NCBI RefSeq assembly: GCF_046119375.1
Contig: NW_027362762.1
Coordinates: forward strand, 694,090,001 to 694,154,000
Reading direction: 5' to 3'
Source: Phyllobates terribilis
Lineage: Eukaryota
Length of the DNA: 64,000 nt
Each line of letters starts with the position of its first letter. Position 1 is the first letter of the stretch. The notes under the pieces are model-generated. The model was not told the origin of the DNA. It saw only the letters and a program-made list of their open reading frames with translations, and did no database searches. Positions 2,750 through 60,419 of the stretch are shown in pieces. Position numbers and translations under genes: made by a program.

Positions 2750-3772
2750 CGGTTTCCCTCTATGCCTCTATGGATACCCGGTCGCCGCCGGCATGAGGTT
2801 GTGAAAAGCTTCCGCCTCCACAAGCTTAAAAGGCCATATTTCAAGTGCAAAGAGCTGCCAAGAAATCTGGCAGTTTAGTGTTGCGGCCTGTGGGTGAGTG
2901 AGTGGCTGGCTGCATACTTGCGCTTGCATTCCAAGTAACAGAAAACTAAGCAGATGGTGGCCTCTATCATCATCATGGCCTCACCTCGGCACTATGAACT
3001 CTCCTGAAGGAGAAGCCAGCGCCCGCCGGAGCAGTCTCCGGTTCTTTGGTGGGCCCATCCAACTCTGCTGAAAAGCAGCCCTGGCTAAGAAAAGTGTGGG
3101 GGAAGGTTCCCGGACACTCTACGGCTGCTTTTTTAATGTGGATCAGCCATGCTTATGCATGCTATTTCTCAAAACGCATTACAGATCAGGCCATTGTCCA
3201 ACTCTGTATTCAATAAATTAAATGCGCAAAGAAAGATGTGTGTGTGTCAAAGCACCACCGACAAGTGCGAGTTGATGTTGGATGGGCTGCCATTGCTTCT
3301 GCAACAAGCTCAATTATAGGACTTCCTGGGAGAAATGACAAGCAGGGTAGATACGGTTTCCCTCTATGCCAGTCCTTTCACTGAGTTAAATACAACTCTC
3401 AGCAAAAAAAGTTGTGGACTGGCTCCGTACCGTCCCTGGCCACATTCACCTGTCCACGTGTTTGTGGTTGGGCGGTCCTTCCCAGTAAGTGCACTGGGGA
3501 GGGCATGGGTAATGTTGTGGGACCCGTGCTTATGGAAGGTGGAGACGACACCGGGAGAAACAGTGGCGGCTGGGGACCGAGTATGGACACCCAGCCGCCG
3601 CCGGCATGCGGTTGTGGAAAGCTTCCGCCTCCACGAGCCTAAAAGGCCACATTTCAAGTGCAAGCAGCTGTCAAAAATGTGGCAGTATAGTATTGCAGCC
3701 CCAAGGAATGGGGTAGGGACAACTGAACGCTGCAGTGGGACAAGGATGAGGACGGTGATTGTTGCAAGTCTG
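2750..3772 (-). pseudogene. Antisense-oriented hAT transposase fragments inside hAT copy 1 (continues 4929-4990 after the solo LTR)
   Basis: Minus-strand translation includes HNITHALPSALTGKDRPTTNTWTGECGQGRY, similar to transposase QNICRALNNAVTGRLHLTTDT*TSACGQGWY. 2750-2940 encodes the KRKYAA..H segment. Confidence 0.8.
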
Positions 3773-4924
3773 TGACGCACCCACGGGATGGGGACTCGGC
3801 GCCTGGGCCTTGCTGTTTGGTTTTGGGGGACGCCGCGGTGGTCGGCTCACGGGGCCGTACCCTGCGGTCACTCTTAAAAAGCAAGGAATTGGGGAAAAGG
3901 TGTATGGGAAGGGGAAAGTTCGTGACGCCACCTGTGGTGTCTGGTGAGGATCACCAGCGCTGCTACAGTCCTCTGAGGCCGGTGATCCGGCAGCTTAGAT
4001 GGTGCAGCTCCCCACAGGTGGAGCGGGGCCTCAGGGCAGCGTAAGAGAAGGGATGCAGGACAGAGGGGACCCAGCCGGGTCGGAGGAAGAATAGGCACAC
4101 ACACGACAGTTCCCTTCAGTACCTTTACTGGTGGTGTTTCAGGCACGATCCAGGACACTGTAGAGTGAAGGGTGCATATCAGGACTCTCCCCAGTGAGCG
4201 GGTGTGGGGCCTCCTGCTTCTTGCCTTTTCCTGTTAAGTTTATGACCTCCCTGGAGCTAGGCCTAACTTGGTCTCTGTCTTGCACCGGCTGACCTGGTGG
4301 TAGGGCCTTCTGTTGGAGATCACACTCCCTGGTCTCTTGGGCCTCAGTGACTCCTGACCCTGGTATATCAGTAAGCTTTTGGTGTTCCTGGGACATGTAG
4401 TTCGCCAGGGATCCCGGTTGTTTCTGTTGGTCCTAGAGATCCTTGCAGACTCGGACCCGGTGTCCGGTAAATGCTTGTGGGGTGAGCTGGTTAAGCTCCT
4501 CTGTCCCCTATGTAGCTCGCTTACTCCACTTGCCTTCGGCCACGCTTGGGGCCCTCACTAGGCTTCACACTGGCAGTAGGCCTCGCTACTCTTCACCGCT
4601 CTTATGGCGCCGGCATGCCTTAAGCTCACTGACTGAGCTTTATGAGTCTGAACTCTCTCTAGAGGGACTGGAACTACCTCTGTCCCTTGAGGAAACTGTT
4701 CTCTAGACTGAGCTCAACTCCACGGCTGACCTCTCTCAGGCTCCTCTACTGCAGGAACTGACTGCCTAGCTCCACCTTACCTTTTTATATCCCTATCCGG
4801 GCTCCCTCTGGTGGTCTGAGGTGGAAGGTGGAGGTGTGTGAATGCTATGAGGGCCTCTTGTGGAGGAATCCGTCCATGCACCCCTCCAGGATCTGTGGCA
4901 CCAATGCGCAGCAGGGGCGCCACA
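3773..4924 (-). mobile_element. Solo LTR (1152 bp) of a Gypsy family related to the full-length element
   Basis: Ends TGACGCACCC…GGGGCGCCACA resemble TGACGCGCCC…GGGGTGCCACA of the full element. 4-bp TSD TCTG (3769-3772, 4925-4928). The empty site GTTGCAAGTCTGCAACGAC is seen in the paralogous hAT sequence at ~45546-45564. TATA and AGTAAA motifs are on the minus strand. Confidence 0.92.
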
Positions 4925-16265: not shown

Positions 16266-17251
16266 TTATATATGGAAACGTGAATATGAAAAATATGTGG
16301 AATTGTAAAAAAAATGTGAATATGGAAAATTACATTCCTAATAGTACATTTTAAAAACATGGCTCTAGCAAAAATTGCTGTGACACTTCCACTATATTTT
16401 CAGTTCCTATGAAAGAGTTGCAGACATCTCATTAGGGTAATTACATCAGCAGGGTTACCAAGTATCATCAGTCTCCTTAGAGATTGTAGCACATAAACAA
16501 CTAAAGAAATGATCGTTTAGGAAGAGCAATAAATATAGTCTCATCTGAGATTTGCTTTATCTACATTCTATTTATCCTTTATCTATTTCTTAAAGTCTCG
16601 TTTCCTTCCTGATATTCCCTAAAGAGAGTCAAAATTCAACTGAATTTCTACTCATGACACTTAACTTTTCTGTTAATAAGAGGGTCAAATCACATCTGCA
16701 GAATATTATGCAAACGTTTTAGGCATGTGTGGAAAAAATGCTGCAATGAAGAATCCTTTCAAAAGTGTTAATAGTTAATTTGGTGCGACCACCTTTTGCC
16801 TTCAAAACAACATCAAACATCAATTCATCTAGGTACAATTGCATGCAGATTACGAACAAACTTGGCAGGAAGACTGTTCAAATCAACTTAATGACATTGG
16901 CTGTATGTATTAGGTCATTGTCTTGCTGCAAAATAAATTTGGAGTCAATTTGATGTCTCCCTCATGGCACTGATTGATGGATAAGTATCTGCTTTTATTT
17001 CATAATGGTGAAGAAACCAAGAAATGGGCGATGTTGAGGTCTGCAGACCCAGTGGTGGCCAAGAAAAGTTAGTGAAGCAGATGAAAGACACATCATCCTT
17101 ACTTCCCTTCACAATAGGAGGATGTCGAGCATCGCCATCAGCTCAGAACTGGCAGCAACAGGTGGCATTCAGCTGCACCAATCTACTGTTAGGAGAATTC
17201 TGGCCAGAAGTGGTCTTTATGGAAGAATTGCCGCCAAAAAACAATACCTTC

Positions 17252-18254
17252 TGACGCGCCCCTGGGCCTGCTATGTCGCGCAGCGTCTCGCGCACGGGGG
17301 CTTACCCGGAACCGGATCAGATGAGGGTTGTAGTCTCCGAGTGGCGGGGACCCGGTCCGTGCCCAGGGAGTCAAACTCAGTGTGTGGCAGTCTTGATAGG
17401 TGTTATTTGAGTGTCGACTACGCCACCCGTTGATTTGCAGCTATGGAGCTGCCGCTGCAGGGCAGACCGCTGAGGCCGGTGTAGAATTGTGCAGCGTGAT
17501 AGTATAACCCCCAACGGGAGGGGTATGGCCTCAGGGCAGCCGACGTGGAAGATGGGGGTAGCAGGAACCACTCAGAGACGGTGCGGTGTAATTCAGGGTC
17601 TTTACTGGTAACAACGATAGACCCTCCCGGAGTACTTGCTAGCGAACGGGGCCTGGTCAGTCCTTGAGCAGATGGGATCTCCCCTGGCCAGGCGGAGTTG
17701 TAGGCCTCCCAAACTGACTGTACTCTTCTGGCTACCTTGCTAGAAGCGGATATAAGTAGCCCACGTCCATGAGTGTGCCGTGTGGTGCTCACCCGTATGG
17801 CCGGTGACTCGGGGCCTTCTAATGGCTTTCGCTCCACGATGGCAGTGCTGGTCCCACGCGTGTGACCTTGCCTTCGGGTTTCTGGGCCTGAGGACCTGAA
17901 ATCCCCTGCCGGTCGGCTTCTGCTGCTGGGTAAGAGTTAGTCCCCACAGCCTCGGACGCCGGGTCCGGTAAGAAAGCTTCTCAGTCAGGGCGAGCTCTGC
18001 AGCTGCCAGCCCCTGATTCGTAGTAGTATTGCTCCCACTGAGCTTCTGCTGTTTCTTCCTATGACTGTTTCTCGTCTCTACTCTCCTTGACTCCTAACCC
18101 TGCCTCAGCCCCGGGTTTATATAGGGGAAGTTCTTCCCCTCCCAGGACTGGGCAGGAGGTGTGGCATGCATAGGATCCCTGACCAAAGGACCTCCCACCT
18201 GCTCTCAGACATAACATTACATTACTGTGGAAACCAGACCCCTGGGGTGCCACA
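17252..18254 (-). repeat. 3' LTR
   Basis: Direct repeat of 24156-25158 (offset 6904); 8 substitutions and no indels by eye. Confidence 0.97.
17601..17606 (-). terminator. Candidate variant poly(A) signal AGTAAA in the 3' LTR
   Basis: No AATAAA on the minus strand of the LTR. AGTAAA lies 349 nt from the LTR end and 351 nt from the end of the divergent solo LTR (4124-4129). Confidence 0.6.
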
Positions 18255-18263
18255 TTCCCCCCT
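18255..18263 (-). other. Polypurine tract
   Basis: Minus strand AGGGGGGAA immediately before the 3' LTR. Confidence 0.85.
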
Positions 18264-18618
18264 AGTGAAATTTAGTACTCCGGGACTAAACATATTTTAG
18301 AAAAACATAACAAGATATAACAACAATAATAGTACAATAAGAAGAAACACATAAAGGTGGTCACGGCATGTCCGTAACCGGGTGTAGTCTTTGAAGAAAA
18401 GCAAGGTGTCCATTTCACCAAAACAGGGAGACGTAACCAGGTAGGGGTTTGTCCTGCCCCGAGTCCTTAACAGTCTTTAGTCCGTCCTGGGTTACGCTCC
18501 AACTATGTACAAAGGATTCCCGGTAAACCCACCAAGGACTCCTACAAATAACTAGAAACACAAAATTATACACAAGCAACAATACACAGGTAAACATAAA
18601 TAAAACAATTTATACACT

Positions 18619-21600
18619 TCAAATCCTCCAACGTGCGGGTAACTGGCCTCTAGTGGCCCTAGTGGACCTACGGAGCTGACTGTCTAGCCCTGAACTACAG
18701 GGTGTAGGAGCTGTCAAGGGTAAACTGGGCAGCTGTCTACCGGCTCTTTGGCTCACTAGGGATATGGCAGGCTCACTGCAAGCAGAGGGTTGATCCTCCT
18801 GGTCTGCGGGTGTGGGGTCTTCTGCCTCCTGGACCGGCTGTTCTTCCAGCTCTACCTGTTGCTCCGTAGGTGCTTGGGATGCTGGTTGGAGGAAGGTGAG
18901 TACGGGTACCACAACTGCACCATTGACTTGAGTCCAAGACCGAGGGAAGTCCCCGAGCACAGTACTAACCATATCTTCCCTTTCCTCTACGGGTCGATGG
19001 TCTTCTTGTTCCTCTTCAGGGTTCCTCAGTTGTTCGGGACACTTCTTCAGGTGGTCCCGGGATACAATGGCTGTGGTTTCCCCTCCGTCTTTACTGATGG
19101 TACAAACCTTCGGGTTCTCGTGGCTTGAGGGCAGTACGGTGTACGGGTCCTTCTCCCACTGGTCGTCCAACTTGTGGAGCCGTCTCTTCCTCTTCAAGAC
19201 CTGCTCTCCGGGTACCAGGGGAACAGCGGGAGCATACTGGTTGTAAGTTTTCTCTTGTCTTTCCCTAGCCTGACAGAGACTTCGCTCCACGCTCTCCTGT
19301 ACTCTCCGGTACTGCTGCTGCCTCTCTGTGTCCCAGTCTGCTTCTGGTGAAGTGTCCTCGGGTGTCAGGACTCCCATCTCCAGGTCAACAGGTAGCTTAC
19401 CAGGTCTTGCCCTCATCAGGTAAGCCGGGGTACAGTTAGTGGAACCTACCGGGATGTGGTTGTATAGGTCCACTAGGTCGGGCAACCTCTCGGGCCACAG
19501 ACTGCGTTCTTCCAGGGGCAATGTTTTTAGAAGATCTATCACCACCTGGTTCATTTTCTCACAAAGTCCATTAGTTTGCGGATGATAGGGTGTCGTCCTT
19601 ATCTTCCGGCAGCCATACAGAGTGCAGAATTCTTGGAAGACCTCCGCTTCAAAGGCAGGTCCCTGATCCGTCAGCACTTGGTCCAGGTACCCGTGTGGAC
19701 GGCAGAAGTGCTGCTGGAAGGCTCTAGCTGCTGTTTGAGCCGTTAAGTCCTTGACGGGGACGACAACCAAGAACCGGGAGTAATGATCCACGATGGTTAA
19801 CGCGTAGACGTAGCCACTTCTGCTTGGGGTCAGTTTTACATGATCCAAGGCTACCAGTTCCAACGGTTGCCGGGTGACGATGGACTGCAGGGGAGTCTTC
19901 TGGCTGGCACGGTCCTTCCTTCTCAGGTTGCACGGGCCACAGTCTCTGCACCACTTCTCAATGGTTCCCCTCATGCCTACCCAGTGGAATCGCTCGCGCA
20001 GCAGGAACTCCAGCTTCTTCCACCCGAAGTGTCCAGCTCCGTCGTGGTATGCCTCCATCACCATGGCTGCGTCTCTTCGTGGCACCACTACTTGCCAGAG
20101 TAGTTCATGCGTCCGGGAGTTAACCATTCTGCGGCACAACTTCCCCTTGTAAAGGAACAGTCGACTCTTCTCTGCCCATAGTTGTTTGGCTTCCTCCGGA
20201 GCGTCTGGTTCAAGGCAAGCCTCCGGGCGAGTCAGCATCTCCTTCACCAGTCGGACGGCAGGGTCGCTGTCTTGCGTTTCCGCCCAGTTGTAGTGAGGTA
20301 AGGGGTTCAACGTAGCAGCCTGCTTACTCCTTACCCGGTGGGAATACTGGATAGTCCCATGACGGTGGAACGCAGGGAGTTCAACTTCTTCCAGTCCCTC
20401 CGGATCTTCTCCTTCGTCCGGCAGGTTGGGCATCCTGGACAGGGCGTCCGCGTTGGTATTGGAGCGTCCGGCCCGGTATTTGATTGTGAACTCGTAGTTG
20501 GACAGACGGGCCATCCACCTCTGTTCCAGGGCACCGAGTCTTGCCGTGTCCAGGTGTGTCAACGGGTTGTTATCCGTGTACACGGTGAACCGGGAAGAAG
20601 CGAGGTAATGCTTAAAGCGCTCGGTGACTGCCCATACTACGGCCAGGAACTCTAGCTTAAATGAGCTGTAATTCTCAGGGTTCCTTTCGGTGGGTCGCAG
20701 CTTTCGGCTGGCGTAGGCGATTACTCGTTCCTTCCCCTGCTGGATCTGGGACAGTACGGCTCCTAGCCCGATGTTACTGGCGTCGGTGTAGAGGATAAAG
20801 GGCTGGCTATAATCCGGGTACGCCAGGATTTCGTCCCCCGTGAGGGCCATCTTCAGCTGGCGGAAGGACTCTTCTTCCAGCTCCTCCCATTTGAAGGGCG
20901 GCTTCTGGTTCTTGGCCTTCCGGGACTGGCCTATCAGGAGGTCCTGCATAGGTGCTGCCTTTTTGGTGAAACCGGGAATAAACCTTCGGTAGTAGCCTAC
21001 CAACCCGAGGAACTGCCGCACTTCTTTTACGCTGGAGGGGCTTGGCCATTCCTTAATTGCGGTGATCTTATCAGGGTCGGGAGCCACTCCGTCAGCGCTC
21101 ACCACGTGTCCTAGGTACTGCACCTTTGGTTTCAGGAGGTGACACTTGGAGGGTTTCACCTTTAGGCCGTAACTCGCCAGAGCTTCGAACACTTCCGCCA
21201 GGTGTTTTAGGTGGTCCTCATACGTCTTGGAATATACGATGACATCGTCCAGGTACAACAGGACCGTCTCGAAGTTTCTGTGGCCCAGACAACACTCCAT
21301 TAGTCGTTGGAAGGTTCCTGGTGCGTTGCAGAGTCCGAACGGCATGCAGGTGAACTCGCTAAGTCCCATCGGGGTGGTGAATGCGGTCTTCTCCCGGTCC
21401 GCCTCTGCTACAGGAACCTGCCAGTACCCGCTAGTGAGATCCAAGGTAGAGAAGAAGTTAGCAGATCTTAAAGCAGCCAATGACTCCTCTATCCTTGGTA
21501 AGGGGTACGCATCCTTGTGTGTGATACGGTTGATTTTCCGGTAATCTACACACATCCTCATGGTGTTGTCTTTTTTTCTGACTAAGACTAGTGGAGCTGC

Positions 21601-22755
21601 CCAGGGGCTACAGCTATCCCTGATCACCCCAGCCTCCTTCATGTCTCTAAGCATCCCCTTGGCGTGTTGGTAGTGGGCAGGGGGTACGGGTCGATACCTC
21701 TCTTTTATAGGAGGATGGTCTCCCGTGGGGATGTGGTGTTCTACCCCCTTGACTCGCCCGAAGTCTAACGGGTGTTTACTGAACACTCTCTCGTACTCTT
21801 GAACCACCCGATAGACTCCTTGTTTCTGGTGTGCGGGAGTGGAGTCAGTACCCAGATGTAGTTGCTGACACCAGTCCTCCATGTTTTTCTTAGAGCCGTT
21901 ACGTTCCTCCGGGTGAGATGGAGGCAAGGGTTCCACAGATTGTATAGAATTTTGGTTAATGGTATATAATTTGGCTAGCGTGGCATACCGGGGCAGGTAC
22001 ACTTCCCTCTCCCCGATATTTATTATGCGAACGGGCACCCTCCCATGGCGTACATCAACCACCCCCCGTGCTGTCAAAATGGTGGGCCTACTGTCCGAGT
22101 AAACTGGTTCTACCATTGCCTGGTAATCCCTACCTCTCAGACCAATAGCTGCCCGGCACCAAATCATCATTTCACTTTTTGGGGGCATGGCAATAGGAAA
22201 AGGGTCACACATTCTTACGCTACCAATCTCACCGCCGGAGAGTTCCACCTGTTGCCGTCGCATCAGTGCCCGGATCTCTTTCTGGAGCACCCGCTGCTCG
22301 CTGGAGCTGGCGTTCTTGGCAACCTGCTGTAAAAGGAAAATCACCTCTGCAAGACAATTTTCAATTACATTAGTTCCTAGAGTTATTTTTGGGTGACTCT
22401 CATGTTTGTCAATATCTACAATGATCAGTCCCTGTGCTGCCAGTTCGACTCTACCGATTTTGATGGTCACCTCTTTAAATCCAATCTGTGGCACGGGCTG
22501 GCCATTGCTGGCGATGATACTCAAGTCGTCGTCAGGGTAGCGGGTAATATCCGAGTCATTCCAGTACTGCTTAAAGACCACGTACGGGATGGTGGTGACC
22601 TGTGACCCGGTGTCCAGTAGGGCACTCATAGGAATGCCATCCAGTACCACAGGCAAGACTGGACGTCCTCCCACATATCTGTCGCGCCAGTTCGATGGGC
22701 CTGGTGATCTTTTTCCTGGGGGTTGGCCCTCTACCCCAGGTTGTGCCCGTTTAAA
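18619..22755 (-). CDS. pol: Pol polyprotein (protease, RT, RNase H, integrase), probably made as Gag-Pol by -1 frameshift
   Basis: 1351-aa ORF from the GTG at 22674; the frame is also open back to 22755. Motifs: LLDTGS (PR), SPWAAPLVLVRKKD…YLDD (RT), TDAS…GLGAVL (RH), H-H-C-C finger, LDHV/TDQG/EKMN (IN DDE). No chromodomain seen. Confidence 0.96.
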   Translation of the reverse strand, partial: FKRAQPGVEGQPPGKRSPGPSNWRDRYVGGRPVLPVVLDGIPMSALLDTGSQVTTIPYVVFKQYWNDSDITRYPDDDLSIIASNGQPVPQIGFKEVTIKIGRVELAAQGLIIVDIDKHESHPKITLGTNVIENCLAEVIFLLQQVAKNASSSEQRVLQKEIRALMRRQQVELSGGEIGSVRMCDPFPIAMPPKSEMMIWCRAAIGLRGRDYQAMVEPVYSDSRPTILTARGVVDVRHGRVPVRIINIGEREVYLPRYATLAKLYTINQNSIQSVEPLPPSHPEERNGSKKNMEDWCQQLHLGTDSTPAHQKQGVYRVVQEYERVFSKHPLDFGRVKGVEHHIPTGDHPPIKERYRPVPPAHYQHAKGMLRDMKEAGVIRDSCSPWAAPLVLVRKKDNTMRMCVDYRKINRITHKDAYPLPRIEESLAALRSANFFSTLDLTSGYWQVPVAEADREKTAFTTPMGLSEFTCMPFGLCNAPGTFQRLMECCLGHRNFETVLLYLDDVIVYSKTYEDHLKHLAEVFEALASYGLKVKPSKCHLLKPKVQYLGHVVSADGVAPDPDKITAIKEWPSPSSVKEVRQFLGLVGYYRRFIPGFTKKAAPMQDLLIGQSRKAKNQKPPFKWEELEEESFRQLKMALTGDEILAYPDYSQPFILYTDASNIGLGAVLSQIQQGKERVIAYASRKLRPTERNPENYSSFKLEFLAVVWAVTERFKHYLASSRFTVYTDNNPLTHLDTARLGALEQRWMARLSNYEFTIKYRAGRSNTNADALSRMPNLPDEGEDPEGLEEVELPAFHRHGTIQYSHRVRSKQAATLNPLPHYNWAETQDSDPAVRLVKEMLTRPEACLEPDAPEEAKQLWAEKSRLFLYKGKLCRRMVNSRTHELLWQVVVPRRDAAMVMEAYHDGAGHFGWKKLEFLLRERFHWVGMRGTIEKWCRDCGPCNLRRKDRASQKTPLQSIVTRQPLELVALDHVKLTPSRSGYVYALTIVDHYSRFLVVVPVKDLTAQTAARAFQQHFCRPHGYLDQVLTDQGPAFEAEVFQEFCTLYGCRKIRTTPYHPQTNGLCEKMNQVVIDLLKTLPLEERSLWPERLPDLVDLYNHIPVGSTNCTPAYLMRARPGKLPVDLEMGVLTPEDTSPEADWDTERQQQYRRVQESVERSLCQARERQEKTYNQYAPAVPLVPGEQVLKRKRRLHKLDDQWEKDPYTVLPSSHENPKVCTISKDGGETTAIVSRDHLKKCPEQLRNPEEEQEDHRPVEEREDMVSTVLGDFPRSWTQVNGAVVVPVLTFLQPASQAPTEQQVELEEQPVQEAEDPTPADQEDQPSACSEPAISLVSQRAGRQLPSLPLTAPTPCSSGLDSQLRRSTRATRGQLPARWRI
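22697..22755 (-). promoter_or_regulatory. -1 ribosomal frameshift signal (U UUA AAC plus predicted H-type pseudoknot)
   Basis: Heptamer 22755-22749 is in the gag frame and its -1 frame is the pol frame. 8-nt spacer; S1 CCUGGGG/CCCCAGG; S2 GGGCC/GGCCC. Confidence 0.8.
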
Positions 22756-23711
22756 GAACAGTACCTTGCCATATGTCCGGGTTGATTGCAGCGGCGGCAG
22801 ATGGGTCGTCCGTCTTCGCTGTATCGGTCACTGGGTCTTCCTCTGGCCGGTGGGGTCCTCCTTGGTCGACGCCACGGGATGTCCTCCGGTCCGGATGCCA
22901 GCTGGATCTTCCCTGGGGTGGAAACCTGTAAAGACTGCACAGTTCGGGTTAGCGCAGCAACGCTTTTAGCTAGCTCTTGGACCTGATGGTGCAGGTCTGG
23001 AGCCGGGTCATTGTTCAAAGCCTGCGCATCAGCCCCCACAGGCCCTGACGACAAGGGCGCCGCCTCCTGGTGGTAAGTGATAGCTGGGTGCCTGTGGGTC
23101 ACAACGCCAACCGGTGCCGGTTCTCGGAGCACCCGGATGGCTCTGTCCTTGAACTGTGCAAAGTCCAGATGAGGATCCTGTAAGGCCATTGCCCGCAACT
23201 GGGTTCGGTGGGCATTGCAATATAGTCCCTCTATAAATTGTTCGGTCAACAGCCTGTCCTCGTTTCCCACGCCGTCAGGGTCGGTCTGCTTAATGGCTCT
23301 CAGGGCCTCTTGTAGATTTAGTGCATAGTCCCTTATACTCTCATGTGCTCGCTGCTTGCACCCATAGAATCTAAGCTTAATCTCGGCTGAGGTGCGGGTA
23401 TCAAAGGTGTCCCTCAGCCGGGTTAGTATCCCTGCGACAGTCCTCCTCCCAGGTGGCCAGGACTTTACCTCCTTTTGGGCTGCCCCGGCTAGTTGGGCCA
23501 CCAGGATGCTCACTTTTTGCTCCTCTATGAGGGGGTACACCTGGAAGAGGCTATCCAACTTTTCTTTAAAGTCATTCAGGGTATGTGACTCCCCTGAGTA
23601 CTGGGGTAGCCAGGCTGCTCCCGGGATATAGGGCATGGTGAAGGGCATAACTGCAGCAGCAGTGGCGCTGGCGGGGGTTGAGGCAGTGAAGCTCTCCTCC
23701 GCATCCGACAT
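22731..23711 (-). CDS. gag: Gag (326 aa) with CCHC zinc knuckle
   Basis: ATG in GAAGATG context; CRRCNQPGHMARYC = CX2CX4HX4C; overlaps the pol frame at its 3' end. Confidence 0.93.
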   Translation of the reverse strand: MSDAEESFTASTPASATAAAVMPFTMPYIPGAAWLPQYSGESHTLNDFKEKLDSLFQVYPLIEEQKVSILVAQLAGAAQKEVKSWPPGRRTVAGILTRLRDTFDTRTSAEIKLRFYGCKQRAHESIRDYALNLQEALRAIKQTDPDGVGNEDRLLTEQFIEGLYCNAHRTQLRAMALQDPHLDFAQFKDRAIRVLREPAPVGVVTHRHPAITYHQEAAPLSSGPVGADAQALNNDPAPDLHHQVQELAKSVAALTRTVQSLQVSTPGKIQLASGPEDIPWRRPRRTPPARGRPSDRYSEDGRPICRRCNQPGHMARYCSLNGHNLG

Positions 23712-23937
23712 CTTCCTCCCCCCTAGTGGACCGTGGCCTACCTTGCGATGATCCTGTTCCGTAGGCCGCGGCTCCGCAGTAGATCGTCAGGGTTGAGGAC
23801 CTTCCGTCGCGCTCCGGTGACGTCGGCGTCTGCTGGGCTCCTTCCAGGACCTTACGCAACGTCCGGACGTGAGGCGGGACTTCAGTTCTCGCGCGCTTTC
23901 GGAGTCCACGCCCCTCTTCTTCCCGCGCGGCGTCCTC

Positions 23938-24064
23938 AAGATGGCGTCCAATGGCGGGAAAACTCCACGGATGGCAGGTAGAAGGCCGAAGATGGCGCCG
24001 GATGGCGGGAAAACTTCGCGGATGGCGGGAAGAAGGCAGAAGATGGCGCCGGATGGCGGGAAAC
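23938..24064. repeat. 51-bp tandem repeat (2.5 copies) in the Gypsy 5' leader
   Basis: AAGATGGCG at 23938, 23989 and 24040. Confidence 0.9.
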
Positions 24065-24133
24065 CTCACCACTGGTAAGTTTGAACAGTCTTTGCTTTTC
24101 AGGCACGCAGTACCCGGTGGTTGCGGGCACGAA

Positions 24134-24151
24134 ATCCTGCCGACTACGCCA
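24134..24151 (-). other. Primer-binding site for tRNA-Ser(AGA/TGA)
   Basis: Minus strand TGGCGTAGTCGGCAGGAT, 4 nt after the 5' LTR; complement of the recalled vertebrate tRNA-Ser 3' end ATCCTGCCGACTACGCCA. Confidence 0.9.
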
Positions 24152-24155
24152 AAGT

Positions 24156-25158
24156 TGACGCGCCCCTGGGCCTGCTATGTCGCGCAGCGTCTCGCGCACG
24201 GGGGCTTACCCGGAACCGGATCAGATGAGGGTTGTAGTCTCCGAGTGGCGGGGACCCGGTCCGTGCCCAGGGAGTCAAACTCAGTGTGTGGCAGTCTTGA
24301 TAGGTGTTATTTGAGTGTCGACTACGCCACCCGCTGATTTGCAGCTATGGAGCTGCCGCTGCAGGGCAGACCGCTGAGGCCGGTGTAGAATTGTGCAGCG
24401 TGATAGTATAACCCCCAACGGGAGGGGTATGGCCTCAGGGCAGCCGACATGGAAGATGGGGGTAGCAGGAACCACTCAGAGACGGTGCGGTGTAATTCAG
24501 GGTCTTTACTGGTAACAACGATAGACCCTCCCGGAGTACTTGCTAGCGAACTGGGCCTGGTCAGTCCTTGAGCAGATGGGATCTCCCCTGGCCAGGCGGA
24601 GTTGTAGGCCTCCCAAACTGACTGTACTCTTCTGGCTACCTTGCTAGAAGCGGATATAAGTAGCCCACGTCCCTGAGTGTGCCGTGTGGTGCTCACCCGT
24701 ATGGCCGGTGACTCGGGGCCTTCTAATGGCTTCCGCTCCACGATGGCGGTGCTGGTCCCACGCGTGTGACCTTGCCTTCAGGTTTCTGGGCCTGAGGACC
24801 TGAAATCCCCTGCCGGTCGGCTTCTGCTGCTGGGTAAGAGTTAGTCCCCACAGCCTCGGACGCCGGGTCCGGTAAGAAAGCTTCTCAGTCAGGGCGAGCT
24901 CTGCAGCTGCCAGCCCCTGACTCGTAGTAGTATTGCTCCCACTGAGCTTCTGCTGTTTCTTCCTATGACTGTTTCTCGTCTCTACTCTCCTTGACTCCTA
25001 ACCCTGCCTCAGCCCCGGGTTTATATAGGGGAAGTTCTTCCCCTCCCAGGACTGGGCAGGAGGTGTGGCATGCATAGGATCCCTGACCAAAGGACCTCCC
25101 ACCTGCTCTCAGACATAACATTACATTACTGTGGAAACCAGACCCCTGGGGTGCCACA
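24156..25158 (-). repeat. 5' LTR
   Basis: Direct repeat of 17252-18254; minus-strand TGTGGC…CGTCA. Confidence 0.97.
25020..25027 (-). promoter_or_regulatory. LTR TATA box (also 18116-18123)
   Basis: TATATAAA 131 nt into the LTR; equivalent TATAAAA ~135 nt into the related solo LTR. Confidence 0.7.
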
Positions 25159-25699
25159 CTTCCACATAGAAACAAGGCCAAATGTGAAATATTTGGCTGT
25201 AACAAAAGGTATTTTATTCACTGAAAGGCTAGAGAGCAGTACAATAATGAGTGTCTGCAGGCAACAGTGAAGCATGGTGGAGGTTCCTGCAAGTTTTGAG
25301 GTGTATTCCAGCAAATGAATTTGGGGATTTAGTCAAAATGAATGGTGCCCTTAATGCTGCCTAATACAGACAGATACGTATTCATCATGCAATACTATGA
25401 GGCAGGTGTCTGATTGGTTCCAAATTTATTCTGAAGCAGGACAATAACTCCAAAGATACATCCAATGTCGTTAAGAACTATCTTCAGCGTTAAAATGAAC
25501 AAATAGTCCTGGGAGTGATGATATGGCCCACACAGAGCACTTAGCTCAACATTCTCAAGCCTGTCTGGGAATACATGAAGAGACAGGACGATTTCCACAA
25601 GCTTACATCCACAAATCTGTGGTTAGTTCTCCAAGATGTTTGTAACAATCTACTGAGTTTTTTCAAAAACTGTGTGCAAGTGTACATAGAAGAAATGAT

Positions 25700-26026
25700 T
25701 AGCTGATCCTTGGATTTTTGGGTTAGTTGGGTTCGACCGAACTTTAGTCCAAAGTTCGGCTCGGGTACCAGAACTCTACCTGACCTTGAACCAGAACCCA
25801 AAACTCCATAGAAATCAATGGGACCCGAACTTTGGTGCTGTGAAATGGTCGTAGTAAAGGCTAGGGGGCTGAAAAAGGAAGCAGAGAGTCTCTCTCTTTC
25901 CTCCCGGAACTCCGAACATTAAAACGGACTTCCGGGAGAAGTCCGTGTTCAGAGTTCAGCACCGGACCGGACACTAGATGTCCGGTATGAATTCCGAACT
26001 TTGCAGTTCAGGTTCGCTCATCTCTA
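25700..26026. mobile_element. hAT-derived MITE inserted in the Tc1
   Basis: Right TIR TTCGCTCATCTCTA; repeated CCGAAC/GTTCGG subterminal motifs; near-TSD AGAAATGAT / AGAATGAT; Tc1 sequence resumes after 26026. Confidence 0.7.
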
Positions 26027-29545: not shown

Positions 29546-30125
29546 ATCCCAATGTATTGTTACCCTTTTATAAATCACTGGTGACGCCACATCTGGAATA
29601 TGGGATCCAGTTTTGGGCTCCACATTTTCAAAAGGATATTCAGAAGTTAGAGTCAGTTCAAAGACGGCCAACTAGATTATTATACAGAATGGAAGGCCTC
29701 TTATATGATGAGAGATTGAAAAAGTTGAACTTGTTTAGCTTAGAAAAACGACGCCTCAGAGGGGATCTCATTTACATGTATAAATATATATGTGGTCAGT
29801 ACAAAGGTCTAGCTCATGACTTATTCCTTTCAAAGACTATACTAAGGACCAGGGGGCACTCATTACGGATGGAAGAAAAGCGATTCCAGCACCTAAACAG
29901 GAAAGGGTTCTTTACAGTCAAAGCAGTTAGGCTGTGGAATTCCCTACCACAAGACGTAATAATGGCAGACACTATAACAGCTTTCAAAAAAGGGCTGTAT
30001 GATTTCCTCAATACAGGTAACATTGTGGGTTATAGTTAAATTAGACAAATTGTTACACCTATAGTAGTACATTTGATCCAGGGTTCTAGGACTGATCGCC
30101 TTTTCTCGGGGTCACGAGGAACGGC
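29546..30125 (+). mobile_element. CR1 LINE 3' fragment (5'-truncated ORF2 C-terminus)
   Basis: LPFYKSLVTPHLEYGIQFWAPH…LESVQRR…LFSLEKRRLRGDLIYMYK…TRGHSLR…FFTVKAVRLWNSLP is the typical CR1 ORF2 end. Confidence 0.92.
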
Positions 30126-39824: not shown

Positions 39825-42800
39825 ATGGGCAAGGCGCGTGGCAAGGGACGTGAAAGTGGACGTTCTGGTGATGGTGCGTGCAGAGGACGAGGCCGTGGCC
39901 AAGGTGAAAATGTGCCACAACAAACAGCCACATCTTCTCGCTCCCATTTCTTGACCGAACTACTAGGGAAGCACAGAACAACACCAGTATTGCGAACTGA
40001 TCTGTGTGAACAGGTTATTAATTGGATAGCAGATAAAACTTCCAGTTACCTGGGCACCACCACCTCCGGCCTGTTTTCCACACGGTCGACTCTTAGAAGC
40101 CGTGAGTCTCGACCGCATACTCCTTCTCACCCTGATGCTCCTTCCTCCCACCATGCCGAGTGTCGTCAGACAGCAAGTGATCCCACACTTGGACACTCTG
40201 AAGAGCTGTTCACTGGTCCATTTCCAGATTTGTGCCCCTCGCCTGCTCCGCTTGAAGTGGTGGAAGAGGAGATCCCATCTAGCGATGCCCAAATATTTGA
40301 ACAGCGACGGCCACAGGAAGTCGACGCTGGCAATTTGTCACAAGAGGTGGACGATGACGAGACACAATTGCCAGGAAGTGAGGAGGAGGATCGTGGTGCG
40401 CAAGTGGAAGAGTAGGAGGTGGTGGATGATCTACTAACTGACCCAACGTGGCAGGAGGACATGCAGAGTGAGGCCAGCAGCACATAGGGGGAGGGAGGCA
40501 GAGTACCCCAAAAGGCAGGAAGAAGCAGTGTGGTGGCAGCAGACAGAAGGTGGGCAACCGTTCCCCGTAACACCAACACGAGGGACGTTGGCAGTACAAC
40601 TGGTAGGTCTTCCAGAGTCTGGAATTTTTTTAAAGACTCTGCTGATAACACCAAAAAGGCCATTTGTACCACCTGCCATGCCAGCATCAGCAAGGGTGAC
40701 AAAACTACCAGCCTGACCACCACCAGCATGATCAGGCACATGGCAGCAAAGCAACCGACTTTGTGGGCCGAACCCCAGGGTCCACGACCAGTGTCAGCGG
40801 GTGTCACCACTGCTTCTTCCACTGTTGTGTGTGCAATAGAACCCCCTGTTGTGTGTTCAAGGCAATCCCCTGTCCATACTGCATGCAAAGATGCCCCCTC
40901 CTCTCAGTCTTCACTTGTTATGGCAGTTTCTCAAGAAACAGCATCAACGTCCACGTCCACGTCCCACCGCAGCGTTCAATTGTCCATATCCCAGACCATT
41001 GAACGAAAGCGGAAATTCGCAGCTAACGCCCCACAGGCCACAGTCCTAAATTCGCACATTTCACGACTGCTTGCGTTGGAAATGCTGCCTTTTAGGCTGG
41101 TGGAGACGGAATCCTTCCGCAACCGTATGGTGGTGGCCGTCCCTCGGTACTCGGTCCCCAGCCGACACTATTTTGCCCGGTGTGCCATCCTCACACTACA
41201 CAAGCACGTGTCCCAAAACATCTGCCGTGCCCTCAACAACGCAGTTACTGGGAGACTCCACCTGACAACGGACACGTGAACAAGTGCTTGTGGCCAGGGA
41301 TGGTACATCTCCCTGATGGCACACTGGGTAAACATAGTGGAAGCTGGAACCCAGTCGGACCTTGGGACGAAACACATCCTCCCCACACCGAGGATTGCGG
41401 GCTCTATGTCAGTCAGAGTTGTCCCCACAGTGTACAGCTCCAGCGCATCCTCCTCCTCCTCCTCATGTTCAGCCTCCATCTCAGATATCACCACATCAGT
41501 TACAAGCTGTAAGCACTGCAGTACTGCCTCCGCCAAGCGGCAATTGGCTGTGCTGAAACTTTTAAGCTTAGGTGAGAAACCTCACACTGCTTGTGAGTTG
41601 TGGACAGCTGCGAAAGAGCAGGCAGATCTGTGGCTGAGACCGCTGAACCTACATCCAGGCATGGTGGTGTGTGACAATGGCCGTAACCTGGTGGCGGCTC
41701 TGAGGCGAGGCGTGATCACACACTTACCATGCCTGGCTCATGTGCTTAACCTCGTGGTTCAGCGCTTTCTTAAATCGTACCCCTAGTTGCCAGATCTGCT
41801 TGTCAGAGTACGCCGCCTGTCAGCTCATTTTCACAAGTCGGCTACAGCTTCCGCCGCCCTTGCTGTGTTGCAGCAGCGTTTGCAGCTTCCGTCACACCGA
41901 CTGGTGTGTGATGTCCCCACACGTTGGAACTCTACCCTCCACATGTTGCAAAGGATTTGTGAGCAGAAGAGAGCAGTTGTGGAGTACCAGCTGCAACAAG
42001 GCCGTCGATATTCAGGTCAGACTCCACACATAAGACCTCAGGAGTGGACCTGGATGTCTGACATCTGTACCATCTTGACAAACCTTGAGGAGTCCACCCA
42101 GATGGTGAGTGGCGATCATGCCATCATTAGCGTCAGCATTCCACTTGTCTGTCTTTTGCAACGCTTTCTGCAGAGAATTAAAGAGGAGGCATTGCAGCCA
42201 GAGTATGATGAGATGGATCAAGAAGCCGTAGCGGTCGATTACACACAGCCCAGCCTCATCTCATCACAACGTGCATTGGGGGACAATGAGGGAGAGGAGG
42301 AGGAGGAGGAGGAGGAAGAACAGGAGCTTGTATCATGCGCTGTAGACGGTAGTACCTGTACAACTGTCATAACCGTCGGTTCAGCGTGGGTGGCCTGAGG
42401 ACAGGGGGGAGGAGGAGGAGGAGAGCATGGTCAGTCGTCATCTTGGTGAGTACACGGAAGTCTTGCCCGTTACCAGTCTGGCACGCATGGCTGACTTTAT
42501 GTTGCGCTGCCTTAACCATGACCCTCGTGTTGTCAAAATGTTGGGTGACAGTCATTACTGGTTGGTGACACTTTTAGACCCCCACAACAAGGAGAACTTT
42601 CACTCTCTTATTCCTGAGGTGGAGAGGTCTACAAAAATGGGGCAGTACCAGAAGGCCCTTGCTGCAGAACTGTTAAAAAAGTTCCCATCTGAACACGCTA
42701 GCGGCAGAGGTCACAGTTCGTTGGCCAACCAAGGCGTACAAGTGAGAGAGAGGCAACTCCAATCCAGCAGAGGCAGGGGAACACTGTCAACATTCTGGGA

Positions 42801-43178
42801 CTGTTTTCTGAGACACGCCCAGCTTACAGGCCCTGAGGCGCGGGATACTCTCACAAGGAGTGGAAAGTTTCAAAAGATGGTGAGGGAGTACTTTGCCGAC
42901 CGTGCCAGCGTCCTCCGTGATTCCTCTGTGCCTTTTAATTGTTGGGTATCCAAGCTGGACACTTGGAATGAACTCGCTCTGTACTCCTTGGAGGTCCTGG
43001 CCTGCCCTGCCGCTAGCGTGTTATCGGAGCGTGTTTTAGTGCCGCTGGGGGAATTATAACTGATAAGCGCACTCGCCTGTCAACTGACAATGCTGACAAG
43101 CTGACCCTTATCAAAGTGAACAAGGGCTGGATTGGGCCAGACTTCTCATCACCACCAAATGACAGCAGAGTAACATAA
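39825..43178 (+). pseudogene. hAT (ZBED-like) transposase pseudogene, ~1100 codons
   Basis: RG-rich N-terminus; BED finger VWNFF…AICTTC…SMIRHMAAKQ; HLTTDT; VVCDNGRNL; CLAHVLNL; CDVPTRWNST; CPAASVLSERV. Stops at 40413, 41277 and 41784, plus frameshifts. Confidence 0.93.
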
Positions 43179-43339: not shown

Positions 43340-43740
43340 TTATTGAAAGTTCCTCCGTCCTTATTTTTGTCAGCTTTTGCTTGGAAGGCATAAGCAAAGA
43401 CTGTGGGAGACCCACTCCCCAATAATGGGAATAATATTTTTAAGATGCTGTACTGTATGGCTCTTGTAAGGGGCATTGCAAGTTCCTCCGTCCTAATTTT
43501 TCGCAGCTTTTGCTTGGAACGCATAAGCAAAGACTATGGGAGACCCACTCTCCAATAATGGGAATAATGTTTGTAATATGCTGTACTGCATGGCTCTTGT
43601 AAGGGGCATTGCAAGTTCCTTTGTCCTAATTTTTGGCAGCTTTTGCTTGGAAAGCATAAACAAATACTATGGGAGACCCACTCTCCAATAATGGGAATAA
43701 TGTTTTTAAGATGCTGTACTGTATGGTTCTTGTAAGGGGC
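43340..43740. repeat. 133-bp tandem repeat x3 in the hAT 3' region
   Basis: GGGAGACCCACTC at 43405, 43538 and 43671. Confidence 0.92.
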
Positions 43741-44470
43741 ATTAAAAGCGTCTTGTTAAGCTACTGTGACCTCCACCACTTTTCTGAGGGGCATTAAAAG
43801 CGTCTTGTTAAGCTACTGGAACCTCCACGTCTCTTCTGAGGGGCATTAAAAGCATCTTGTTAAGCCACTGGGACCTCCACGTCTCTTCTGAGGAGCATTA
43901 AAAGCGTCTTGTTAAGCTACTGGGACCTCCACCACTTTTCCGAGGGGCATTAAAAGCGTCTTGTTAAGCTACTGGGACCTCCACCACTTTTCCGAGGGGC
44001 ATTAAAACCGTCTTGTTAAGCTAATGGGACCTCCACGTCTCTTCTGAGGGGCATTAAAAGCGTCTTGTTAAGCTACTGGGACCTCCACGTCTCTTCTGAG
44101 GGTCATTAAAAGCATCTTGTTAAGCTACTGTGACCTCCACCACTTTTCCGAGGGGCATTAAAAGCGTCTTGTTAAGCTACTGGGACCTCCACGTCTCTTC
44201 TGAGGGGCATTAAATGCGTCTTGTTAAGCTACTGTGACCTCCACGTCTCTTCCAAGGGGCATTCAAACCATCTTGTTAAGCTACTGGGACCTCCACGTCT
44301 TTTCCAAGGGGCATTAAAACCGTCTTGTTAAGCTACTGTGACATCCACTTTTCTTCAAAGGCGCATTAAAAGCGTCTTCTTAAGCCACTCTGAACTCCAC
44401 AGCTCTTCCAAGGGGCATTGAAATGTTGTTTTTAATTACCTCTAACCTCCACGACTCTTCCAACAGGCAT
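43735..44470. repeat. 52-bp minisatellite, ~14 copies
   Basis: ATTAAAAGCGTCTTGTTAAGCTACTGGGACCTCCACGTCTCTTCTGAGGGGC; CATT anchors every 52 nt from 43741 to 44469 with no phase slip. Confidence 0.96.
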
Positions 44471-44989
44471 TGCATTTCCTCCTAATTTTAGTCAGCTTTT
44501 GCTTTTCAATGAAAAGGCGAAAACTAAGGGAGACCCACTCCCCAATAATGGATAGAAGGTTTATAGTACACTGTAATCCACGTCTGTTTCAAGGGGTATA
44601 GCAGTTCCTCATAATTTTTGGAAAGCCTTCCATTCACTGCTTAGGCCAACAGTGTACAGGAGACCCAGTTGCTATAAATGGAAAAAACGGTTTAGTTAAG
44701 GCCCTCTGACCTCCATGTCATTTCCAAGGGGCATTGGAGTGCACTCACTGTATGCCCTATAACTGTGTAGCCGAGCCGCTCATTTTGTTACAGAAACATA
44801 TCCTACAAGACATACAGTATGTGCTTGACTGGCCTGATATTGATGTGAATGGTCCCTGTTCCTCCTGCTCTTTCTCCTTTGCCACTACCTCATCCATCAT
44901 TTATCACCTGAAGCTTTGTTTTAACGGGAGTCATAGAACTGGGATAGTAGCAGGAAAACATCCAGCAATCCTCGGAGGAGGTAGAATAT

Positions 44990-59621: not shown

Positions 59622-60419
59622 TTAAAAATATATATATACAATTTAGGTCAAATTTCAAACTAATTCAATACAAATCAAAATGTCATGATTTTGTGACTCT
59701 ACCCTTAATATGCTAACATTTTTGACATGAACGTGGCGTCCAACCATCACAGAAAGTTGAATGTGGCTGACAAATCTAATCAATAGAACAGTTCTCCCTT
59801 TACTACTACATAGTTGGGTGGTGGGGTAGACACTTGGCATTAGACATTAGCAAAGTTTATATCTGGTCAGCCATAGTTTATAATAACATCTATCAACAAG
59901 ACTACTAGAGATAATCAAACCATTTGAAATTCAAATTCAGGTTCAGCTAATTTTTCCCAAAAATTCAATTCAATTAATTTAATCGCGAGGAAACTTAAGT
60001 AGTCCAATTACCTTGCAGCAGTGTGCAGAACATTTTGCCATCCCTGGATAATGTATCCACTCTGTTTTATGAGAGTGAAAAAGAGATTCCAAACTTTTGT
60101 ACTACAAGAATAAGAAATGTGTAATTTGAATGTATTAATCAATTACACTGACACTCCATGCCCTATCTCTCCCACTATTGATGCAGCTAAATGTTCTTCA
60201 ACATTTGTACCCTTTTATTTCCCTATGTGGAATGAGCTGTGCACTCTGACCTCTATCCCTATTCTAAAAAAGCATAAAATAGCAGTCTTTGCCAACATCC
60301 ATATTTTTACTGCCCGTAATAGTCCACCCATATGATCTAGGATAGACTAAGTGATGTGATATCTGTAGGGCATAATCAGGAGCTTGTCATCTTCCTTCTT
60401 ATGATTCTTTAGCAGTGTG

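Follow-up and report, generated by a model that had tools for sequence, protein, structure and literature searches.

A site matching the CCA end of the primer tRNA-Ser within the LTRs of frog Gypsy elements, and a companion motif for the 5′ end of the same tRNA

The window, the whole stretch of 64 kb of Phyllobates terribilis DNA that was analysed, contains a solo LTR and a full-length LTR retrotransposon (Table 1), and no tRNA gene was found within these 64 kb. The solo LTR lies inside a remnant that resembles a repeat at 41.1-41.3 kb, near a BED zinc finger frame (positions 3427-3675 and 40488-43059), and that is presumably a hAT-type transposon. The sequences flanking the full-length element (16887-17251 and 25159-25700) resemble what we take to be a decayed Tc1-like transposon. 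Tandem arrays with units of 17 bp, 52 bp and 137 bp are present from ~30020 to ~34300, at 43624-44547 and at 467-1398. The full-length element has the two LTRs, target duplication, primer-binding site (PBS), as well as the polypurine tract, of a Ty3/Gypsy element, and its pol has the Ty3/Gypsy order of RT, RNase H and integrase. The match of its gag to PNMA, a family listed under Barthez (PMC3670739), has an E value of 4e-4 and is below the Pfam cut-off. Total, LTR, gag and pol lengths given for Barthez1 are 7871, 1116, 355 and 1394 (PMC11117352), compared with 7907, 1003, 351 and 1402 for the element in the window, which resembles the Barthez lineage of vertebrate Gypsy elements, an assignment by resemblance and not from a tree.

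Table 1. Positions of the LTR retroelement features in the window
Feature	Position	Strand	Remarks
Solo LTR, Ser(CGA)-primed Gypsy family	3773..4924	(-)	perfect 4-bp target duplication TCTG on both sides
Site S of solo LTR	3918..3930	(-)	complementary over 13 nt to the CCA end of host tRNA-Ser(CGA); equals PBS nt 1-13
Motif Q of solo LTR	3832..3843	(-)	complement of tRNA-Ser(CGA) nt 1-12
AGTAAA of solo LTR, presumed polyadenylation signal	4124..4129	(-)	would place S and Q in the presumed U5
Full-length Gypsy element, Ser(AGA/TGA)-primed	17252..25158	(-)	target duplication CTTC; LTRs identical at 995/1003 positions
5′ LTR of full-length element	24156..25158	(-)	
3′ LTR of full-length element	17252..18254	(-)	
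PBS of full-length element	24134..24151	(-)	complementary over 18 nt to the host tRNA-Ser(AGA/TGA) 3′ end
Site S, 5′ LTR of full-length element	24319..24329	(-)	11 nt, AGA-type; 3′ LTR copy at 17415-17425
Motif Q, 5′ LTR of full-length element	24234..24249	(-)	complementary, if a bulge of 5 nt is allowed, to nt 1-11 of tRNA-Ser(AGA/TGA); 3′ LTR copy at 17330-17345
gag frame, 351 aa	22731..23786	(-)	weak zinc knuckle and PNMA matches
pol frame, 1402 aa	18619..22827	(-)	order RT, RNase H, integrase zinc finger, integrase core

On the element strand, site S of the solo LTR reads TGGCGTCACGAAC, its start being 158 nt from the LTR's 3′ end; in the window it appears as GTTCGTGACGCCA, a sequence that occurs once in the 64 kb. 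A preliminary description of this DNA had placed a site for the end of tRNA-Ser(CGA) ~150 nt from the LTR end, and this is confirmed. The host tRNA-Ser(CGA) gene read from the genome (L038:1440-1521) ends in the same sequence. The chance of finding one given 13-mer in 1152 nt is 1.7e-5, or ~1e-3 when 60 different tRNA ends are allowed for, and none of 1560 control windows had 10 or more matches out of 11. Site S of the solo LTR is real, well beyond chance. A 9-nt match to the CGA-type site at 29581-29589 is outside any LTR context and was taken as a chance match. The preliminary description was wrong in stating that the solo LTR shares little with the LTR of the full-length element beyond their termini. 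The two have colinear blocks in common between the termini, and their S sites occupy the same alignment columns and so are homologous.

Full-length relatives of the solo LTR had been predicted to have the PBS TGGCGTCACGAACAGGAT. Forty matches to the solo LTR were scored and the 30 best fetched, and the predicted PBS is present downstream of the LTR at two loci, L006/L031 and L007/L032. L006 has a 5′ LTR followed by TGGCGTCACGAACAGGAT, and L031, which shows the same element at full length, has two LTRs that are 97.6% alike and 94% alike to the solo LTR, with gag and pol between them; in L007 this PBS follows a neighbouring LTR. Twenty-two of the 30 best matches (L008-L030 except L021), located on many scaffolds, have one common downstream flank and therefore go back to one insertion that was duplicated. 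Among the 40 of 676 candidates that were scored, the gene for the primer tRNA-Ser(CGA) is the sole full-length identical match, and six tRNA-Ser(AGA/TGA) genes (L221-L226) were also read from the genome. Contig C11 has a tandem array (L074-L102) in which many tRNA-Ser(TGA/CGA) genes, with a different acceptor stem, alternate with tRNA-Asp genes. In nine further elements (L033-L037, L039-L042) the copy of the PBS runs beyond the usual 18 nt into the T loop of the tRNA, and in L035, L039 and L040 it is longer by some 15-30 further bases. This over-long pattern has 47 exact matches genome-wide, and nine of ten inspected are such elements. They likely result from reading through the normal stop on the primer.

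Covariation of S with the PBS was scanned over the 10.6-Gb genome with exact patterns, S being placed 130-180 nt before the PBS; the two S patterns are unequal in length and degenerate sites are outside the count. S and PBS are both AGA-type at 60,234 sites and both CGA-type at 3,701, with three sites at which a CGA-type S precedes an AGA-type PBS and four with the reverse arrangement, and the types agree in 63,935 of the 63,942 exact-pattern matches. The claim made earlier, that the intra-LTR site covaries with the primer, is upheld by this agreement, but most of the count reflects descent from one to a few switches and so documents tight coupling rather than thousands of independent events. 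All seven discordant loci were inspected. Five (L103-L105, L148, L150) have the LTR of one group and the leader of another, and two (L147, L149) are AGA-group elements with a CGA-type PBS; they look like recombinants or mis-primed copies. An apparent remnant of a PBS before the AGA-type PBS of L104 and L105 was rejected, as it is the LTR end of that group. When loci were picked without regard to S, a matching S was present in 30 of 30 (picked by leader motif), 28 of 30 and 9 of 9. Non-coding derivatives (L151-L180, L196-L200, L194, L195), with LTRs ~2.8-4.5 kb apart and no pol, have also kept S and Q. One group of these has 1,334 exact junction matches, of which ~60 form a run at ~438.8-440.5 Mb of contig C1.

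S corresponds to PBS nt 1-10 to 1-13, that is, to the complement of CCA, the discriminator and the 3′ strand of the acceptor stem. In 50 AGA copies its positions are 96-100% constant as far as nt 10, and in 22 CGA copies they are 73-100% constant as far as nt 12. About a third of CGA copies have a mismatch at nt 10. Immediately beyond S, identity drops to ~30-70%. This conservation extends across lineages with gag proteins that are ~35% identical. In one family (L202-L220), 17 of 19 loci have a degenerate S that cannot pair with the terminal A of the tRNA, and Q is weak. Duplex predictions in which S was compared with other LTR windows were weakly discriminating.

The covariation described initially was thus supported for S, but a third covarying motif, Q, had been overlooked. 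Found in an alignment of 58 LTR ends, Q is located midway from S to the PBS, some 70-85 nt downstream of the former and 75-100 nt upstream of the latter, differs by type and is the reverse complement of the first 11-12 nt of the same tRNA. Q switches type along with the tRNA, as does S. In the solo LTR, a hand count gives 10 of 12 pairs with tRNA-Ser(CGA) nt 1-12, one of them G-U, and the stretch adjoining Q upstream gives -21.0 kcal/mol for pairing with tRNA nt 2-13. The interval that begins 60 nt and ends 110 nt after S pairs with nt 1-13 of its own tRNA at -20.8 kcal/mol in AGA (n=53) and -19.7 kcal/mol in CGA (n=52) elements, compared with -15.7 and -14.2 kcal/mol for the other tRNA, -12.5 and -13.5 kcal/mol for shuffled windows, and -7.5 to -13.5 kcal/mol for five other windows. 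The element's own tRNA is the better partner in 37 of 53 and 46 of 52 cases, respectively. In the main AGA group, Q requires a bulge of 2-5 nt and its own tRNA is barely better.

To place Q and S in the context of the whole tRNA, 11 tRNA windows were scanned over 32 LTRs with shuffled sequence as the control. Two of the 11, and no others, bound clearly above shuffled at a fixed position: nt 1-13, for which 27 of the 32 LTRs fall in two adjacent bins, and nt 73-85, for which all 32 give the position of S. A complement of the T arm at a fixed position in U5, as in the PAS, was not found, tRNA windows 49-61, 57-69 and 65-77 being no better than shuffled over the 32 LTRs. A candidate fourth site for the variable arm of the tRNA, strong in the element in the window, was discarded as its position is not conserved and its binding over the 32 LTRs does not exceed shuffled. 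The motif AGTAAA is present 181-223 nt upstream of S in all 32 LTRs and, if taken as the polyadenylation signal, places both S and Q in U5; they would therefore be present once per genomic RNA.

With Q identified, two explanations that concern S or the element RNA itself can be weighed. S could act as a decoy, drawing off host 3′ fragments of tRNA by which priming is blocked or the RNA silenced, and in mouse elements such fragments are described as binding the PBS and blocking priming (PMC7472051). S is, however, without the part that pairs with the fragment seed (PBS nt 12-17 are unmatched), its predicted binding is far weaker than that of the PBS and Q is left with no explanation, and we consider this very improbable. 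Alternatively, what matters about S and Q might be that they form a helix within the RNA or bind a protein, with the match to the tRNA a by-product. The last six bases of Q can indeed pair with nt 5-10 of S or the PBS of its own type in 47 of 53 and 30 of 51 elements, compared with 2 of 53 and 6 of 51 for the other type, and some families have local hairpins that involve S. Against this, predicted pairing over 22 elements averages 0.02 for S with Q and 0.05 for the PBS with Q, no conserved fold is predicted to be shared among the elements, and the two blocks of Q are colinear with the 5′ end of the tRNA and not with S. Neither a shared fold nor an S-Q helix is supported by the fold predictions, and this explanation is barely credible.

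How S changes can be followed in rare copies. Copies whose PBS was copied from the abundant tRNA-Ser of the tandem array number only 11 and are scattered over subfamilies, and 10 of these mis-primed copies have kept the old CGA-type S. The idea that S is rewritten in every cycle was rejected on these grounds. The agreement with the PBS, the near invariance of S and the retention of the old S together argue that S is maintained by selection and not recopied each cycle. The search identified three loci at which S is extended to 18 nt. In L227/L230, four adjacent bases of S have been replaced in the 5′ LTR only, giving a full 18-nt complement of the tRNA, and the 3′ LTR has kept the parental bases. 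In L228 and L229 the whole interval from S to the PBS is missing; the stretches fetched do not reach the 3′ LTRs. All of these loci would fit copying of the tRNA at S in the course of plus-strand synthesis, begun either by priming there or by a jump between templates, but a plain deletion between repeats also explains L228 and L229. As the 5′ U5 is transcribed, a change of S there would be inherited.

These events bear on two further explanations. S and Q might act as DNA, the strong-stop copy of S mimicking the tRNA's 3′ end and re-pairing with the freed 5′ strand of the primer, or aiding primer release or strand transfer. Identical covariation is predicted, and the overwritten S (L230) and the S-to-PBS deletions (L228, L229) fit a jump between the S copy and the attached tRNA during plus-strand synthesis. 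But there are three such events in ~64,000 copies, and the pairing of Q with tRNA nt 8-12, beyond the acceptor stem, is left unexplained, so that we judge this unlikely. A shade less likely again is that minus-strand synthesis truly initiates at S as a second site. S pairs with the terminal nucleotides of the tRNA, Ty1 and Drosophila Gypsy are described as primed from sites of 10-11 nt (PMC4974528, PMC1635307), and the three loci with an 18-nt S could be footprints of such priming. These footprints are, however, very rare, priming at S would presumably lose the LTR end required for integration, and the family L202-L220 has many copies although its S does not form the terminal pair.

In an RT tree of 13 coding elements and nine outgroup proteins, the AGA elements form one derived clade (92/95) inside the CGA lineages, consistent with one change, and in a gag tree the CGA types are in two deep clades. 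Trees of the 330 nt of LTR upstream of S require four changes with 104 rows and two with the 98 rows that remain after six long branches are removed; none of 200 bootstrap trees of the 98-row set allows one change, but a single AGA clade is not rejected in an AU test (p = 0.243). On these trees we regard one primer switch as certain and a second as likely. In the certain switch, four adjacent bases of S (nt 7-10) became the complement of the new tRNA.

Two outgroup RT queries led to twenty further elements. Ten of these are from a distant clade (RT 52-59% identical) in which the PBS is of the Ser(AGA) type, U5 is short and both S and Q are absent, which indicates that priming by tRNA-Ser does not need S or Q. 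Two (L245 and L248, RT 63-64% identical) have a CGA PBS and a poor S, with 8 of 11 matches in an S-like stretch; Q is clear in one of them, L245, located 98 nt upstream of the PBS, and Q may be older than S. Two of the remaining elements belong to the main group and have S, and no Ser PBS was found in the other six. Viral contigs were also searched for the arrangement, with 0 matches, and the single metagenome match (L233) was dismissed as a chance match in bacterial-looking coding DNA. The absence of S from the distant clade, the small number of switches and the existence of a route for rewriting (L227/L230) are all compatible with S being a functionless old duplication of the PBS that is inherited and occasionally rewritten. 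That remains quite improbable, as S is nearly invariant beside fast-changing flanks in deep lineages, rewriting is far too rare to maintain it and Q, which tracks the tRNA too, cannot have been copied from the PBS.

S and Q are complementary to the primer tRNA, conserved, and covary with it. With somewhat more confidence than doubt, we suggest that S, Q and the PBS constitute a selected multipartite primer-binding module that likely captures both strands of the acceptor stem. The prediction that S is mostly paired in the RNA (mean unpaired 0.30) counts against this module, as S would not be an open landing site. In a possible sequence of events, Q would anchor the tRNA by its 5′ strand, and the anchored tRNA would pair the 3′ strand of its acceptor stem first at S, with the T arm unmelted, at about -19 to -23 kcal/mol. 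The tRNA's 3′ end could then shift to the stronger 18-nt PBS, at about -34 to -36 kcal/mol, with the freed 5′ strand still held by Q after the transfer. Together, S and Q would open the acceptor stem before the PBS is loaded; the order, S before the PBS, is conjecture. A primer switch would begin by mis-priming, which rewrites the PBS; S would be aligned later by rare tRNA-templated overwriting during plus-strand synthesis, and spread would be limited to copies with matching sites. More tentatively, and on balance doubtfully, S and Q may act in U5 as a clamp that opens the tRNA. Between them they would grip the acceptor stem by both of its strands, select the low-copy tRNA-Ser in preference to a near-twin that is far more numerous and deliver it to the PBS, and the duplicated S would be updated from the primer when the tRNA changes.

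More than one site for the primer tRNA is also described for the Gypsy-type elements Drosophila Gypsy, with two tRNA-Lys2 sites, and yeast Ty3, with a bipartite 5′-3′ PBS (PMC1635307, PMC4974528). There, as described, the second site is at the RNA's 3′ end and pairs with other arms of the tRNA (the anticodon and T stems in Gypsy), so that a bridge is possible, whereas in the frog elements S pairs with the same CCA end as the PBS, Q pairs with the 5′ end, and both are apparently in U5. In the bipartite arrangement of Ty3/Gypsy elements the second site pairs with a segment other than the CCA end, which is true of Q (tRNA nt 1-12) and not of S. The multipartite PBS of Ty1 likewise has a short acceptor-stem site and nearby extra sites for packaging and initiation (PMC4974528), but in that account the extra sites are downstream, in GAG, and pair with the T and D arms, and no second CCA-end site is described. 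Additional sites near the PBS that are complementary to the tRNA are also reported for HIV-1 (the PAS and the A-rich loop) and avian retroviruses (U5 with the T arm), where a stable primer switch requires the PBS and a second site, in HIV-1 in U5, to change together (PMC3185550). As presented there, the partner of those sites is the T arm or the anticodon loop, and the switches had been made by engineering, whereas a natural switch is recorded in thousands of copies of the frog elements. Sequences related to tRNA are also present inside the LTRs of Helenus and Cassandra, which have LTRs derived from small RNAs, but these are described as tRNA-sense promoter boxes in short, non-coding elements (PMC10886601). 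S and Q are antisense, short and matched to the primer, and the elements that contain them are coding; a promoter LTR of the Helenus type was rejected on these grounds and on the lack of a tRNA gene in the window. General background on the subject is given in PMC3601003. In the open literature that was searched, we found no description of a further site for the CCA end that lies in U5 and changes with the primer. Extra contacts with the tRNA are known from Ty1, Ty3, Gypsy and HIV; Q is new here, as is, so far as the searched literature shows, the duplicated CCA-end site.

Whether extra contacts between the tRNA and the template decide the choice of primer has long been debated for HIV-1, with evidence there from engineered switches. 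This one frog genome appears to preserve a natural switch, discordant intermediates and a tRNA-templated repair event, and its two matched sequence types lend themselves to clean swap tests. An additional site for this end of the tRNA within the LTR, which occurs at no fewer than 60,000 element junctions and in further solo LTRs, would also constitute a large class of targets for tRNA fragments. If S and Q do act as a clamp, these elements would be a natural record of primer switching by a retroelement.
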